Assembly (NCBI GenBank): GCA_014763545.1
Contig: JACXVD010000007.1
Span: 815 to 64,814, forward strand
DNA from: Sphingomonadales bacterium
GTDB taxonomy: Bacteria; Pseudomonadota; Alphaproteobacteria; Sphingomonadales; Sphingomonadaceae
Reading direction: 5' to 3'
Length of the DNA: 64,000 nucleotides
Shown here piece after piece: positions 1,524 to 37,110 of this stretch. The notes below the pieces were generated by a model, which ran no database searches, was not told the origin of the DNA, and saw only the letters and a program-made list of their open reading frames with translations. The first letter of the stretch is position 1. Each line of letters begins with the position of its first letter. A program made the position numbers and the translations under genes.

Positions 1524-2531
1524 ATGCAATTCCTTTCAGACAATGCCGCCGCCGTCCATCCCGCCGTCTGGCAGGCGATGAAGGATGTCGACGCCGCCGA
1601 TGCGCCCTATGATGGCGACCGTGCCTCTGCCGCGCTCGACGATGCGATGGCGATGGTGTTCGGCAAGGAAGTGGCGGTGCTGTGGGTCGCCACCGGCACG
1701 GCGGCCAATTGCCTCGCGCTCGCTGCCATGTGCCCGCCGCATGGCGCGGTCGCGTGCCACCGCGAGGCGCATATCGAGGTCGACGAAGGCGGCGCACCGG
1801 GCTTCTTCATGCATGGCGCCAAGCTGCTGCTGTGCGGCGCGAGCGACGGGAGCGACCATGCCAAGCTGACGCCCGCCAGCCTCGCCGCCACGCTCGACCC
1901 GATCCGCAACGATGTCCACCAGGTCCAGCCGCATGCGCTCTCGATTACGCAGGCGAGCGAATATGGCTGCGTCTATTCGCCGGGCGAGCTGGCCGCGCTG
2001 GATGCCGAATGCGGGCGGCGCGGGCTGGGCTTCCATATGGACGGGGCGCGCTTCGCCAATGCCGTGGCCTTCGCCAACCGGCCGCCTGCCGAGGTCGCCG
2101 GTCCGGTCGATGCACTGAGCTTCGGCTTCATCAAGAACGGGGGGATGAGCGCGGAGGCGATTGTCTTCTTCGACACCGCGCTGGCCGATGTCGTGCGCTA
2201 TCGCCGCAAGCGGGCCGGGCATCTGCAGAGCAAGGGCCGCTATCTCGCGGCGCAGATCCTCGCCATGCTGGAGGGCGATGTGTGGCTGCACAATGCCGCC
2301 GCCGCCAATGCCGCGGCCGCCGAAATCGGCACAGCCTGCGGCGAGCGGCTGCTGCATCCGGTGCAGGCGAACGAGCTGTTCGTCGCCCTGACCCCGGATG
2401 AGCGTGCCGCGCTGCGCGCGCAGGGCTTCGGCTTTTACGACTGGGGGGCCGATGCGGCGCGCTTCGTCACCGCGTGGAACACGCGCGCCGAAGACGCCGC
2501 CGCACTGGCGCGGGCGATCGCCGGCCTATGA
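1524..2531 (+). CDS. ltaE: Low-specificity L-threonine aldolase (beta-eliminating lyase family, PLP-dependent)
   Basis: MQFLSDNAAAVHPAVWQAM... N-terminus and overall similarity to LtaE. The upstream part of the 1200.. ORF is antisense to the GNAT gene. Confidence 0.85.
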   Translation: MQFLSDNAAAVHPAVWQAMKDVDAADAPYDGDRASAALDDAMAMVFGKEVAVLWVATGTAANCLALAAMCPPHGAVACHREAHIEVDEGGAPGFFMHGAKLLLCGASDGSDHAKLTPASLAATLDPIRNDVHQVQPHALSITQASEYGCVYSPGELAALDAECGRRGLGFHMDGARFANAVAFANRPPAEVAGPVDALSFGFIKNGGMSAEAIVFFDTALADVVRYRRKRAGHLQSKGRYLAAQILAMLEGDVWLHNAAAANAAAAEIGTACGERLLHPVQANELFVALTPDERAALRAQGFGFYDWGADAARFVTAWNTRAEDAAALARAIAGL

Positions 2532-3451
2532 GCGAACCCGAACGGCACGCGCTGCTGCAGCCGCGCATCGCCCTGCCCTTCCTGCTGGTCACCCTGATCT
2601 GGGGCTCGACCTGGCTGGTGATCAAGGACCAGCTCGGGATGGCCCCGGCGAGCTGGTCGGTCACCTGGCGCTTTGCCATCGCGGCGGTCGGCATGGCGCT
2701 GCTCGCGCTGGTGCGGGGCGAGCGGCTGATGCTCGACCGGCAGGGGCAGATCGTCGCGATCGCGCTGGGCCTCACGCAGTTCTGCTTCAACTTCAATTTC
2801 GTCTACCGCGCCGAACAGCACCTGACATCGGGGCTGGTGGCGGTGCTGTTCGGCATCCTGATGGTGCCCAATGCACTGCTGGGTCGGCTGGTCCTGAAGA
2901 CGCCGATCACCCGCGGCTTCATGGCCGGGTCTGCGATCGGGCTGGCGGGCATCGCGCTGATGCTGGTGCACGAAGCGCGCATGGCCCCGCCCGAAGGCAA
3001 GGTCTGGCTGGGTATCGCGCTGACATTGCTGGCGATCCTGTGCGCATCGAGCGCCAATGTGCTGCAGGCGACGCCGGTCGCCGGGCGCCAGCGGCTGCTG
3101 CCGTTGCTCGCCTGGGCGCTGCTGTGGGGGGCGCTGGCCGATGCGGCGATCGCGTGGCTCACCGCCGGGCCGCCGGTAATCCCTGCCGACCTGCGCTATT
3201 GGGCGGGGGTGAGCTATCTCGGCATCGTCGGTTCGGTGCTGACCTTCCCGCTCTATTTCATGCTGATCCGCGAACTCGGGCCGGGCCGGGCGGCTTACAA
3301 CGGGGTGGCGGTGCCGGTGGTGGCGATGCTGCTGTCAACCCTGTTCGAAGCCTATCAGTGGTCGCTGCTGGCCGCCGCAGGCGGCGCGCTGGCGCTGCTC
3401 GGCATGGCGGTTGCGCTAAGGGCGCGCAATCCCGTGCGGAAGTCGGGGTAG
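2528..3451 (+). CDS. EamA/DMT-family transporter
   Basis: About 10 predicted TM helices with a typical EamA repeat architecture. The ATG overlaps the ltaE stop (ATGA). Confidence 0.8.
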   Translation: MSEPERHALLQPRIALPFLLVTLIWGSTWLVIKDQLGMAPASWSVTWRFAIAAVGMALLALVRGERLMLDRQGQIVAIALGLTQFCFNFNFVYRAEQHLTSGLVAVLFGILMVPNALLGRLVLKTPITRGFMAGSAIGLAGIALMLVHEARMAPPEGKVWLGIALTLLAILCASSANVLQATPVAGRQRLLPLLAWALLWGALADAAIAWLTAGPPVIPADLRYWAGVSYLGIVGSVLTFPLYFMLIRELGPGRAAYNGVAVPVVAMLLSTLFEAYQWSLLAAAGGALALLGMAVALRARNPVRKSG

Positions 3452-17003: not shown

Positions 17004-17084
17004 TGCGCCGGGCTGGGCCCGGGATGCTCCGCGGCGGCACCCCGGTCCTTGCGCAAACCCACCCCTGCCACCCATCTTGCATCC

Positions 17085-17687
17085 ATGGCAGACCAAGTTG
17101 ACGATTTGCGCCGCGCGGTGGCCGCGTGCCGCCTGTGCGCGGCGCATCTGCCCAATCCGCCGCGCCCGCTGGCGGCCTTTTCGTCGCGGGCGCGCATCGT
17201 CATCACCAGCCAGGCGCCCGGGCGGCTGTCGCATGAAAGCGGCGTTCCGTGGGATGATCCCAGCGGTAGGCGGCTGCGCGACTGGCTGGGGATCGACGAG
17301 GGCGACTTCTACGATCCGCAGAAGGTCGCCTTGCTACCGATGGGCTTCTGCTATCCCGGCACCGGCAGTTCGGGCGACAATCCGCCACGCCGCGAATGTG
17401 CGCCGCAGTGGCATGGCCGGATCGAGGAAATACTGCCGCGCGAGCGACTCACCCTGCTGGTCGGCACCTATGCGCACAAATCCGGCCTGCCGCGGGAACT
17501 GGGCACCACGCTGGAGCCGCGCATCCGCAATGCGCTGGCCGTGCCGGACGGGCCGATTGCTTTGCCGCATCCCTCGTGGCGGGTCGTCGGCTGGATGAAG
17601 CGCAATCCTTGGTTCGCGGATGACGTGCTGCCGGTGGTGCGAGAACGCGTGGCGCACGCCCTGGCTGCCGCCGGGTCGGAGCACTGA
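17085..17687 (+). CDS. Uracil-DNA glycosylase superfamily protein (housekeeping-type)
   Basis: Motif 1 ITSQAPG and motif 2 LPHPSWRV. GC is host-like. Confidence 0.8.
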   Translation: MADQVDDLRRAVAACRLCAAHLPNPPRPLAAFSSRARIVITSQAPGRLSHESGVPWDDPSGRRLRDWLGIDEGDFYDPQKVALLPMGFCYPGTGSSGDNPPRRECAPQWHGRIEEILPRERLTLLVGTYAHKSGLPRELGTTLEPRIRNALAVPDGPIALPHPSWRVVGWMKRNPWFADDVLPVVRERVAHALAAAGSEH

Positions 17688-34373: not shown

Positions 34374-34838
34374 TCATGGCCCGCCTCCCCTGCCGGGGCG
34401 CGGCGCAGCTGCGGGCGGGTGGCGGCGCAGCAGCCGCAAAAGCGAGGAATTGTCGGGCTTGCGGCGGATCGCACTCATGCGCCCACGATAGATCACCGGC
34501 TTGATGAAGCCCGCCTCGACCCGCGCGAGCAGCACCGCATCTGTCACCTTCCGGAAATCCTCGCGCGCCGCCGCGCAGGCCCCGCTGCCCGGCGGCGCCA
34601 GCACCCGGTCCCACGCCTGCGCAAAACTCTCCGCACCCGCCCGCGCGCGCAGGCGATAGGCGCTCGTCCGGCTCATCCCCACCCCGCGCGCCGCCGCCCC
34701 GACCGAGCCGGTGCAATAGAGCAGCGCCAGGAACCCGCACTGCCGCCCCTCGCTCCACCCGTCACGGCGGGCGCGCAAAGGCACCGGACGGAAAAACCCC
34801 GGGCGGCGGCGGATGCGGTGGGCAGGCGGCTTGCTCAT
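34374..34838 (-). CDS. Hypothetical protein with a probable helix-turn-helix
   Basis: GSVGAAARGVGMSRTSAYRLRAR resembles an HTH. Basic N-terminus. High GC, unlike the adjacent islet. Start at the internal Met MSKPPAH. Confidence 0.55.
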   Translation of the reverse strand: MSKPPAHRIRRRPGFFRPVPLRARRDGWSEGRQCGFLALLYCTGSVGAAARGVGMSRTSAYRLRARAGAESFAQAWDRVLAPPGSGACAAAREDFRKVTDAVLLARVEAGFIKPVIYRGRMSAIRRKPDNSSLLRLLRRHPPAAAPRPGRGGGP

Positions 34839-34922
34839 CGGCGAGCTTAAGCCATGGATGGGGGTGTGTAGGAAAGGGGGCTGGGAGATCCCCAAGAAAG
34901 GTGGAACGCGGTGGTCCCTCCG

Positions 34923-35624
34923 TCACACTTGAGGTTCGAGGCTCAATCCAAGTGCGCGCCCCACCAATGGAGTGGGATCGGCGCTCTCATTGCGCCAGTT
35001 CACCCGGCTGGGGTGAGTGGCTGTTACGACCGAAAGGCCATCGGCATTTCTGTGGGTGGTGCTCATCCAACGTCTTTTGTTGTGCTCAACGAATGTGTCA
35101 ATCTGCTCGGAAGCCTCGAGCCTTTCACGCACCCAGAGACCAGCGGTCTTACCGAAACACAAGATGGTGCGAATGTTCAGGCTCTCGATCACGGCAGCAT
35201 GGATAGGCCAACAGGCCGCAAGAAGATCAGACTTCTCCTGCGCTAGGTCATTTTCGCTTCGAGTCTGCACGAAGACCACGTTGCTGGTAGGAACCCGATG
35301 TGGATCCAGGCCGAGGCGACCAAGCATGTGAAGTATCTGGGGCTGAAGTCCCCAGGTACCGGGGGGCGCGCACTCCCAGGAACTGGTATATTCTGACCAG
35401 GGTGCATCCGCTCTTTTGAATTCGGCCAGTTTGCTCGCGATCGTGACGGTCGGGACGTCGGCGGGGATACCGCCAGGGTTCAGGCCAAGCACATAGAGGG
35501 GCGCCTTTTCGACGAACGCCTCTTTGCCAGAATAAAAGACCGAGCCGGAGCGTTTCAGTAAGTCGCTCGGCAAGCGATCCACTGCTGTTCTGATCGCTGA
35601 TGGAATTGCCTCATACGAAATCAT
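34923..35624 (-). CDS. UDG-superfamily DNA glycosylase-like protein (SMUG/MUG-like motifs), lower GC
   Basis: Motif 1 LYVLGLNPGG (nt 35469..35486), mid-region ILCFGKTAG, motif 2 ATHPS (nt 35007..35015). Strong SD (gggagggg) upstream of the ATG. Confidence 0.7.
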   Translation of the reverse strand: MISYEAIPSAIRTAVDRLPSDLLKRSGSVFYSGKEAFVEKAPLYVLGLNPGGIPADVPTVTIASKLAEFKRADAPWSEYTSSWECAPPGTWGLQPQILHMLGRLGLDPHRVPTSNVVFVQTRSENDLAQEKSDLLAACWPIHAAVIESLNIRTILCFGKTAGLWVRERLEASEQIDTFVEHNKRRWMSTTHRNADGLSVVTATHPSRVNWRNESADPTPLVGRALGLSLEPQV

Positions 35625-35823
35625 CTTCCCCTCCCATCCTGAACGAGCCCTCGGAACATCAATTGAACATACTGAAATGGCAAGAGATTTATTTTTTCAC
35701 TTAATGCCAGCTCAAGCCTGTGCCCCATCTTTTGCCTTTTCCCGGAGCGACAGGGGTGCTTTCCCCGAATGCCGCGATCTGGGTGCGGGCAGGAGAAAAC
35801 TTCGTCCTGAGAAGGTGACCCAG

Positions 35824-36858
35824 ATGGCATATGACGATGAAACCAACGAACGACTATGGCTTGCCGAATTCGGCCGCAGCATCACTCAAGACGCCCTTGA
35901 AATGGCGGATGGTTTGAAAACAGCCGAGATCGCCGGAATGGCTGAGTGTTACCTTGCGATACTGATCGATCAGCCGAGCAGATCGAGAGAAACCCTGACG
36001 CTAGCACAAGCTGGTGAAAGGCTTGCTACTAAGCTGATCACTCGCAAAGCGCAGGGAAGCCTCGTGACAGGTCTCCCTGCAATCGATGAGCACTCAGTCG
36101 CTTTGCGGGGCGGAAGTTTGATAGCCCTGGCCGGTTCTGATCGGGCAATTTCTAGTGCTCTCGCCACGACAATCGCAACCACTCTAGCACACACTTTGTG
36201 GCAGGATCGGATGAAGGATCGAATGCCGTCTGAGTCACGCGGCGCAGCAGTAGCCTATTTCAGCCTTAGACTATCTGCCGATTTCATTGCCCTGAGCACC
36301 CTCAAGCAGCTAACAAGTCAAAACGGCGAACACCTGATGACGCTCTCCACTCCAGAGGGACGGGCCGCTCTAAAAGCGGCTTGCCATAAGTTTTCAGCCT
36401 TGCCCCTCTTTCTAGAGGAAGACGCCGAGCTATCTCTGATGCAGATGTTGGCGCGCTCTAGGACGTTGATTAGGCGTCACGACACACGTTTAATTGTCGT
36501 GGATGACATCGGCTTGCTGCGAGAATGTCAGTGCGACACGTACCAGGCCAATTCTAAGTCGCGGAAGTTGCGGCAACTGAAGTCGATGGCAGAATTGAAC
36601 AATGTTGCGGTGATCGCCCTTTGTCCTCAGGGAGATTCAAATGACATGGACCAAGTGCCAGAGCTTCTTAAGTTCGCCGATGAGGTTTGGATTGCTGGCC
36701 CATCAAATCGGTCAGCACCCTTAAGGCCCAACTCGGGCCGTCTGTGGGAGCAAGAGATTGCCTTCACGGTGGTGGACCCGCTTTTCGGAGCGAGTGGTCG
36801 GACGAGCCTAAAAATCGACGTTGATATCGGATACGCGTGTGAGATGCCAAAAGAGTAG
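35824..36858 (+). CDS. DnaB-C-terminal/RecA-fold protein with degenerate Walker A (predicted pseudo-ATPase), lower GC
   Basis: Collinear with the DnaB C-domain. ALAGSDRAISS replaces A-R-P-S-M-GKT; FSLRL replaces FSLEM; Walker B is retained (LIVVDD); the LKSMAELNNVAVIALCPQ segment resembles LKALAKELNVPVVALSQ. Start at 35824, preceded by gagaagg. Confidence 0.65.
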   Translation: MAYDDETNERLWLAEFGRSITQDALEMADGLKTAEIAGMAECYLAILIDQPSRSRETLTLAQAGERLATKLITRKAQGSLVTGLPAIDEHSVALRGGSLIALAGSDRAISSALATTIATTLAHTLWQDRMKDRMPSESRGAAVAYFSLRLSADFIALSTLKQLTSQNGEHLMTLSTPEGRAALKAACHKFSALPLFLEEDAELSLMQMLARSRTLIRRHDTRLIVVDDIGLLRECQCDTYQANSKSRKLRQLKSMAELNNVAVIALCPQGDSNDMDQVPELLKFADEVWIAGPSNRSAPLRPNSGRLWEQEIAFTVVDPLFGASGRTSLKIDVDIGYACEMPKE

Positions 36859-37110
36859 GCAATAGAGGGTGGACTGCTCACTGTTGCCGCCAAACGCGGC
36901 TGCCCGCAACGGGCGACTAGGCGTCTCCTGCCTGAATAATTGACGCTCTTTGACATGACCAATACCCAGTCATCACCGGTCAGGCCCGGGGTGACGGGCA
37001 TTGCTCGGGGCCACCCCCAAACCCCCAACTTCCTCCGCCGCCCTGTTGCAATCCCGTGACCGGGCGCTATCGCCCGCGGGACGACGATTCCCTGCTTCGA
37101 GGATGGCCCG

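Follow-up and report, generated by a model that had tools for sequence, protein, structure and literature searches.

Glycosylases with the uracil-DNA glycosylase (UDG) fold have been recognised as anti-phage effectors only recently, with Brig1 in 2024 and Brig2 in 2025, and few UDG families have been tested in this role. Both are UDG-fold anti-phage DNA glycosylases (PMC11078745; bioRxiv 10.1101/2025.10.29.685425); the best structural match of Brig1 is 4ZBY (PMC11078745), while Brig2, an integron protein with this fold, protects against phages whose thymidines are modified (bioRxiv 10.1101/2025.10.29.685425). Here we describe a gene at positions 34923..35624 of a stretch of 64,000 nucleotides from the Sphingomonadales contig JACXVD010000007.1 (assembly GCA_014763545.1; this whole stretch is called the window below), whose product, the UDG-like protein, belongs to an unnamed family that we refer to by its first motif, GLNPGG. 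The reading that we favour, with a little more confidence than doubt, is that the gene would encode a functional, mobile accessory glycosylase for uracil-type bases, with a role that is probably related to conflict.

An original prediction, made from the letters of the window, had proposed an atypical UDG-superfamily protein at this position and had left its strand unstated. The open reading frame (ORF) is real and runs from ATG to stop through 233 codons of the minus strand, and the segments picked out in the protein were found where they had been placed, with GLNPGG at aa 47-52, HPS at aa 204-206 and ILCFGKTAG from aa 154. A Shine-Dalgarno sequence, GGGAGGGG, stands immediately 5' of the ATG, and the short plus-strand ORFs that overlap 34923..35624 found no support. 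Copies of the protein that are identical to that of the window occur in four independent assemblies, namely GCA_014763825.1 (JACXUR010000040.1) and three metagenome assemblies, with the same arrangement of genes. A word-indexed search returned 287 homologues at E<=1e-3, all of them annotated as 'hypothetical protein', and an exhaustive search with a hidden Markov model (HMM) through 1.84 billion cluster representatives returned 1,263 at E<=1e-3, 795 at 1e-10 and 222 at 1e-30, where the resulting count for the family (~800-1,260) is one of clusters at 50% identity. With 287 database matches, 1,263 cluster representatives and invariant motifs, the ORF lies far beyond what chance would give. The family, which can be written GLNPGG/SN/HP after its three motifs, is discrete, in that its profile does not run into the large canonical UDG families. 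A literature search for 'GLNPG' brought up no glycosylase paper, and no experimental characterisation was found in the literature searched.

Placement in the UDG superfamily comes from the fold more than from the sequence. The original prediction had suggested an HMM search against Pfam PF03167 (UDG), which scored 25.4 bits (E 1.7e-5) for a cut-off of 24.3, in a match that is confined to aa 97-215 and marginal if taken alone; the same model matches 33 of the 46 aligned family members at E<=0.01. An AlphaFold2 model built from the 46-sequence alignment (pLDDT 90, pTM 0.89) has GLNPGG after the strand 43-47 (beta1), N115 within the strand 113-115, and H204 of HPS after the strand 198-202, which is the last strand but one. 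Solved UDGs have in common an alpha/beta fold around a four-stranded parallel beta-sheet, and the model agrees with it. When the model was compared with the PDB using Foldseek, all of the top 50 matches were members of the UDG superfamily (probability 0.99-1.00, E 6e-7 to 7e-4, TM 0.41-0.62, identity 11-18%), the best being 4ZBY from S. tokodaii (E 6e-7), and they comprised family 4 enzymes of S. tokodaii and Thermotoga/Thermus, UdgX, SMUG1 of Geobacter, Xenopus and human, and the family 5 enzyme of Thermus. In a library of viral structures, the named matches at E<=0.001 were either UDG-like domains or DNA polymerases, with UDG-polymerase fusions among them, all equally distant. Searches by sequence were less productive: phmmer and the family profile found no UDG among the PDB chains, only noise (PrgI, SOD) at E>0.1, and scans of PHROGs and NCBIfam did not place the protein, the best NCBIfam model being TIGR00758 (family 4) at 12.2 bits for a cut-off of 125.3. 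With good support from the modelled fold and marginal support from the sequence, the protein is a well supported member of the UDG superfamily, as Pfam just above its cut-off, the model and Foldseek all bear out, and its membership in any of the described UDG families is not supported.

The catalytic residues are kept throughout the family. In the alignment of 46 sequences, which are 49-71% identical to the query, 36 columns are invariant, and the window protein keeps 36 of the 36. These include G47-L-N-P-G-G52, S114, N115 and H204-P205, and with them the catalytic Asn of motif 1 and His of motif 2 that had been named originally, which hold across all 46 sequences; further invariant positions are W76, Y79, W83, W139, H142, W186, W210 and D216-P217. 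A third motif, SN115VVF, had been overlooked. Together, the Asn of motif 1, the Asn of motif 3 and the His of motif 2 make up the SMUG1 pattern, and not a hybrid of MUG with families 1/4. The 'hybrid motif combination' put forward at first has to be given up, because a motif-1 Asn combined with an HPS motif 2 is what human SMUG1 carries, and its GMNPG ... HPSPRN was checked in the sequence. Cysteines are conserved in the family at C138 and C156 only, and since there are just two of them, the family has no 4Fe-4S site of the kind found in families 4/5. The segment of ~60 residues between motifs 1 and 3, which holds the invariant W76, Y79 and W83, is specific to the family, and this aromatic-rich insert probably shapes the pocket.

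To obtain the register of the residues, the family profile was aligned by hhalign with the single sequences of SMUG1, UDGa and the second UDG of the window, and as the probabilities were low these alignments were used for register only. Against Thermus UDGa, whose sequence was checked to be identical to that of 1UI0, SN115VVF falls on TN89IVKC and TH204PS on FH155PA, in a weak alignment (E 0.071) that gives residue register only. In Thermus UDGa, motif 3 is initiated by N89 and motif 2 by H155 (PMC5387724, PMC9796141). From the biochemistry of the UDG superfamily we infer that the UDG-like protein would act as a monofunctional DNA glycosylase, flipping a pyrimidine into a predicted pocket made by the three motifs and leaving an abasic site as its product. 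In MUG and SMUG1 the attacking water is positioned by the motif-1 Asn, a part that would fall here to Asn49 of GLNPGG. The two other residues would take over the tasks of their family 4 counterparts, with Asn115 of SNVVF, in the manner of N89, reading the base at its N3-H/O4 edge, and His204 of HPS, in the manner of H155, stabilising the O2 oxyanion of the departing base. According to Hossain et al. (PMC11078745), uracil glycosylases mostly have Asn at the base-reading position, while in Brig1, which excises glucosylated 5-hydroxymethylcytosine (hmC), Glu147 is the functional residue. By analogy at this one position, Asn115 in place of Glu would predict uracil, or a 5-substituted uracil/thymine, as the substrate. 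The original prediction had pointed to hydroxymethylated, glucosylated or deaza bases; with an invariant Asn115 where Brig1 has Glu147, hmC, glucosyl-hmC and deazaguanine would seem the less likely substrates. Nothing in the data from the window demonstrates an unusual substrate.

The distribution of the family is that of a mobile gene. When one genome per species was scanned, 170 of 185,579 species genomes (~0.1%) had a confirmed copy, and the hosts include Alpha-, Beta- and Gammaproteobacteria, Actinomycetota, Chloroflexota, Acidobacteriota, Bacteroidota, Desulfobacterota and others. The identity of these distributed copies to the query ranges from 42 to 68% without any taxonomic pattern, and the gene occupies a different site in each genome; clustering of all the ORFs within +/-8 kb of 81 loci gave zero conserved neighbours. 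The GC content of the gene is lower than that of its flanks by a median of 5.3 points; of 71 loci, 40 have a gene that is GC-poorer by more than 3 points, and 3 have one that is GC-richer by more than 3 points. The window conforms to this, and the foreign composition and accessory status that had been proposed for the gene were borne out: its GC is 0.57 and its GC at third codon positions (GC3) 0.62, and GC3 is 0.56 in the DnaB-like gene next to it, compared with 0.85-0.89 in the flanking hom, glpX, prs and helix-turn-helix (HTH) genes. The UDG-like gene is horizontally acquired, from a family that is itself horizontally mobile. No copy of the family was found among 50,697 phage records, and 72,556 plasmids gave only five partial matches. 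Four of the plasmid matches (H2-H5, from Roseomonas mucosa / R. gilardii) are 26-28% identical over the N-terminal two-thirds, are annotated as 'hypothetical', and may represent a sister family.

Several of the individual loci lie in or beside mobile elements. In Chitinolyticbacter albus (L058, 6842-8636), the UDG-like gene is 179 bp from a divergent, bona fide integron-type integrase (Phage_integrase + SAM_4), and by this adjacency to the integrase it would be in the first-cassette position of an integron. Other copies are found in a serine-recombinase/ParB element (L002), at a prophage/P4-like junction (L093), in a toxin-antitoxin islet among housekeeping genes (L092), and within a run of unknown genes next to an SNF2 helicase (L091).

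Some relatives have architectures that differ from that of the window. In five loci (L015, L038 of Erythrobacter donghaensis, L042, L045 and L034) the UDG-like gene stands between genes for a double-AAA ATPase of ~690 aa, which matches the PADLOC model IetA at 8e-33, and a DUF2779/Cas4-like nuclease of ~494 aa; the arrangement is partial in L066, L037, L013 and L019 and does not occur in the window, and it may be a three-gene system. In 22 of 196 family members, among them P0029, P0048, P0059, P0076, P0109 and P0122, an N-terminal extension of ~70-100 aa carries 1-2 transmembrane-like helices followed by a Lys/Arg/Pro-rich linker, which the window protein does not have. Judged from their sequences, such members would be membrane-tethered UDG-fold proteins. 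One metagenomic protein of 984 aa (P0178) consists of a NERD nuclease-related domain, a Ser/Thr kinase and a C-terminal UDG-like domain (residues 765-983).

Because the family is sporadic and its occurrence of the island type, conflict seems to be the most likely biological role, and it can be hypothesized that the UDG-like protein, like Brig1 and Brig2, attacks invading DNA by base excision. A defence role for the gene would thus be plausible. It is a more tentative proposal, and one that we hold with distinctly less than even confidence, that the GLNPGG/SN/HP family as a whole could represent new and widespread Brig-like anti-phage glycosylases that excise 5-substituted uracil or hypermodified thymidine. 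The distinctive architectures would be part of that proposal and share its tentative standing: the stand-alone gene of the window, the membrane-tethered form with two helices and a basic linker, the three-gene AAA/DUF2779 module and the NERD-kinase fusion.

The contexts of the loci speak for a role in conflict. Genes of conflict or mobility (tyrosine/serine recombinase, transposase, HsdM, HNH_2 endonuclease, IetA-like double-AAA ATPase and DUF2779/Cas4-like nuclease were the classes counted) lie within 8 kb of 25 of the 81 loci, a raw count that is suggestive of enrichment; to these come the copies of L058, L093 and L092, the NERD-kinase fusion and the absence of the family from the phage records. 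A number of observations weigh against the favoured reading. The substrate is predicted from a single-residue analogy, at Asn115, and the loops 51-60 and 81-90 of the AlphaFold2 model are of low confidence. Other such observations would suit an accessory enzyme of base-excision repair, a SMUG1-like back-up that spreads horizontally and acts on uracil, 5-hydroxymethyluracil and deaminated or oxidised pyrimidines in host DNA, which we consider possible though rather unlikely. The SMUG1 repair enzyme has an equal set of catalytic residues (Asn, Asn, His), and Foldseek matched the model to SMUG1 structures at 3e-5. Many of the loci are housekeeping neighbourhoods with a single-gene insertion (holC-ndk in L001, topA-era in L006, and L092), so that several copies sit singly among holC, ndk, topA and era, and the PADLOC 2023 scan gave no match for the UDG-like protein, in a release that predates Brig1 and Brig2. 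A back-up for repair is harder to reconcile with a family that only ~0.1% of species genomes carry, each of them at another site, with a composition that is persistently foreign, and with the mobile elements and restriction genes that often adjoin it. Moreover, membrane-anchored members and a fusion to a NERD-kinase protein are unusual for repair glycosylases, and the genome of the window already has a UDG of host composition. On balance we retain the mobile accessory glycosylase with a conflict-related role as the preferred reading.

The UDG-like gene lies in a low-GC islet that contains only two genes, between a host HTH gene resembling the terminase small subunit (TerS) and prs (Table 1). 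In the favoured reading, the UDG-like and DnaB-like genes arrived together on this foreign islet of ~2 kb.

Table 1. Positions of the UDG-like gene, its islet and other features in the window
Feature	Position	Strand	Description
UDG-fold gene	34923..35624	minus	ATG-to-stop ORF, 233 aa; GLNPGG, SNVVF, HPS
Low-GC islet, ~2.1 kb	34860..36990 (approximate)		Two genes only; GC 0.52-0.60 inside, 0.66-0.74 outside
AT-rich divergent intergenic region	35625..35823		Shine-Dalgarno GGGAGGGG of the UDG-like gene
Degenerate DnaB C-terminal-domain (RecA-fold) gene, orphan	35677..36858 (393 aa) or from 35824 (344 aa)	plus	Pfam DnaB_C
Inverted repeat, left arm, 18 nt	34834..34851		Overlaps HTH/TerS-like start codon, left edge of islet
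Inverted repeat, right arm	36667..36684		Inside 3' part of DnaB-like ORF
HTH/terminase-small-subunit-like gene, 154 aa	34374..34838	minus	phrog_4044 E 2.3e-7, GC3 0.85; outside islet
Second UDG-superfamily gene, 212 aa	17049..17687	plus	SQAPG ... HPS; Pfam UDG 70.8 bits, E 1.6e-19

At the borders of the islet we found no direct repeats, attachment (att) sites, tRNA or recombinase. An inverted repeat, CTCATCGGCGAGCTTAAG, with 17 of its 18 bases complementary, has arms that enclose the UDG-like gene together with most of the DnaB-like one; it has only two copies in the 64-kb window, with no similarity beyond the 18-mer, and among the loci it was seen only in the window's own copies (L084-L087) and is absent from unrelated ones. 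The HTH/TerS-like protein outside the islet has ~70% identical homologues in Erythrobacter, Qipengyuania, Tsuneonella, Citromicrobium and Blastomonas, through which an empty site was sought; in the two relatives examined the neighbourhoods were non-syntenic, and an insertion was not demonstrated. Both promoters of the divergent pair presumably sit in the intergenic region, where no sigma-70 consensus was found and terminator-like matches were at chance level.

The second gene of the islet had been invoked in the original prediction as a partner whose nature hinted at the substrate. Its product scores 57.6 bits with PF03796 (DnaB_C; cut-off 27, E 1.7e-15) and 78.6 bits with the best NCBIfam replicative-helicase model, whose cut-off is 540, and the Pfam scan found no N-terminal DnaB domain. 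Where H. pylori DnaB has GARPSMGKT the aligned segment reads AGSDRAISS, i.e. the Walker A lysine is gone and GK[TS] is replaced by DRAISS. Among 5.8 billion proteins it matched only itself, and phmmer found nothing in the PDB at E<=0.001, with weak DnaB matches at a relaxed threshold. The gene callers were split on its start (35677 or 35824); the upstream start falls inside the AT-rich region with the presumed promoter of the UDG-like gene, and the first ~16 residues that it adds resemble the stub found in L006. That locus, in a Novosphingobium metagenome-assembled genome, is the only one of 80 related loci where the DnaB-like gene recurs, cut down to an N-terminal stub of 133 aa that is placed divergently as in the window, and the gene is absent from the other 79 loci and from the contig of the 71%-identical P0002. 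The DNA similarity with L006 runs through the shared intergenic region and ~100 bp beyond the start codon of the UDG-like gene, and this pairing implies that the two genes have travelled together at least once. The L006 locus (1535-3239) is a mini-islet between topA and era, with a 96-aa GIY-YIG protein, the 133-aa stub and the UDG-like gene, and is more decayed than that of the window.

One could envision from this layout a two-gene system in which the DnaB-like ATPase/helicase loads or targets the glycosylase, the two genes being adjoining, divergent and equally foreign in composition, with the same divergent layout and similarity through the intergenic region in L006. Yet a protein with no homologues among 5.8 billion, with DRAISS for its Walker A GK[TS], whose one other copy is truncated to 133 aa and which is missing from 79 loci and the P0002 contig, makes such a system highly improbable. 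The argument from a partner gene fails on the same grounds, namely the lack of homologues, the lost Walker A lysine and the single truncated recurrence among 80 loci; the DnaB-like gene is a decaying passenger rather than a functional partner, and is uninformative on the substrate.

The state of this passenger raises the question of whether the UDG-like gene, too, is a relic left by a mobile element, decaying or catalytically inert, and either functionless or with a UDG fold that only binds DNA. Such a relic would fit an islet that has no recombinase or att repeats and whose other gene is degenerate, and the Pfam score of the query is marginal, but it would hardly be expected to keep 36 of 36 invariant family residues in a full-length ORF with a good ribosome-binding site, or to occur as identical copies in four independent assemblies. 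We therefore regard it as quite unlikely, and keep to the functional accessory glycosylase.

The window holds a second UDG gene of host-like composition (GC3 0.79), as originally noted; it was confirmed, and spans 17049..17687 where 17085..17687 had been given. Its product has an N-terminal CRLC, falls under every NCBIfam UDG cut-off, with the UdgX domain as its best match (E 0.012), and has no profile similarity to the family of the islet that hhalign could detect.

For the genome of the window, the finding is a modest one, a single accessory gene on a decaying islet. Its wider value is that in the window an unnamed UDG family with intact SMUG1-type residues can be seen in a clean and minimal form, as a single gene. 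If modified thymidines or uracils are its substrates, the family would extend the known defences by one and possibly provide a reagent for mapping such bases; if it is a repair enzyme, it would count as UDG family seven or eight and bring with it a novel aromatic insert.

Compared with the known enzymes, the closest structures are those of family 4 UDGa and UdgX (4ZBY, 1UI0, 1L9G and 6AIL), which are the best structural matches at E 6e-7 to 1e-5. In sequence, SNVVF aligns with TNIVKC, and HP with its counterpart, only weakly (E 0.071), and the Pfam and TIGR00758 matches both cover aa 97-215, whereas motif 1 is GLNPGG, with Asn, in the query and GE(G/A)PG in family 4. Family 4 UDGa and family 5 UDGb were rejected as assignments on the wrong motif 1 (they have GE(A/G)PG or GLAPA), the presence of two Cys only where a 4Fe-4S cluster takes four as ligands, and the TIGR00758 score of 12.2 against 125.3, and the UdgX model gave no match to the UDG-like protein. 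An ordinary family-4/5 orthologue conserved in the relatives, which the original prediction had named as the result that would speak against it, is not what was found, given a TIGR00758 score far below the cut-off and the sporadic occurrence. MUG/TDG of family 2 resembles the query in motif 1, which is G-[IL]-N-P-G and includes the catalytic Asn, but has no His in motif 2, where NPSGLS or MPSSSA stands instead. Family 2 was rejected as well, His204 being invariant and none of the 50 best Foldseek matches belonging to it; the MUG/TDG likeness that had been drawn did not hold up, as neither structure is among those 50.

SMUG1 (family 3; 9GGS, 1OE4 and 5H93) is closest in its catalytic pattern. 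It has, like the query, the alpha/beta fold of the UDGs with no Fe-S cluster, and shares G-x-N-P-G, the motif-3 Asn and H-P-S (HPSRVN in the query, HPSPRN in SMUG1), in a protein of 240-270 aa compared with 233 aa. In the family the motif contexts are GLNPGG and HPSRVN/HPGRAD, so that the Asn and HPS of SMUG1 are present while the adjoining residues differ. The two are 13-16% identical, with a Foldseek E of ~3e-5 and a TM of ~0.46; human, Xenopus and Geobacter SMUG1 in the PDB gave no match at E<=10 by phmmer or by the family profile, and hhalign against human SMUG1 gave a probability of 2%, with one beta-alpha unit aligned. They also differ in that SMUG1 is a lineage-wide repair gene, while the GLNPGG family is sporadic and island-borne and has its own W76/Y79/W83 insert.

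In its distribution and genomic context the GLNPGG family is reminiscent of Brig1 and Brig2, with which it was compared by published description only, and it makes a good candidate member of the defence glycosylases, a class that is still growing. Brig1 (GenBank OR880862; WP_129427366.1) has Glu147 as its base-reading residue where the GLNPGG family has an invariant Asn, and its 42 homologues are mostly from Actinobacteria; the homologues of Brig2 include many Bacillota, of which there are none among the 80 listed loci of the GLNPGG family. In common with both, the family consists of stand-alone proteins annotated as 'hypothetical' whose nearest structure is 4ZBY, is scattered sporadically across phyla, and is found in GC-poor acquired regions near mobile elements or defence genes. 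The putative integron-cassette member in L058 occupies the niche in which Brig2 was found.

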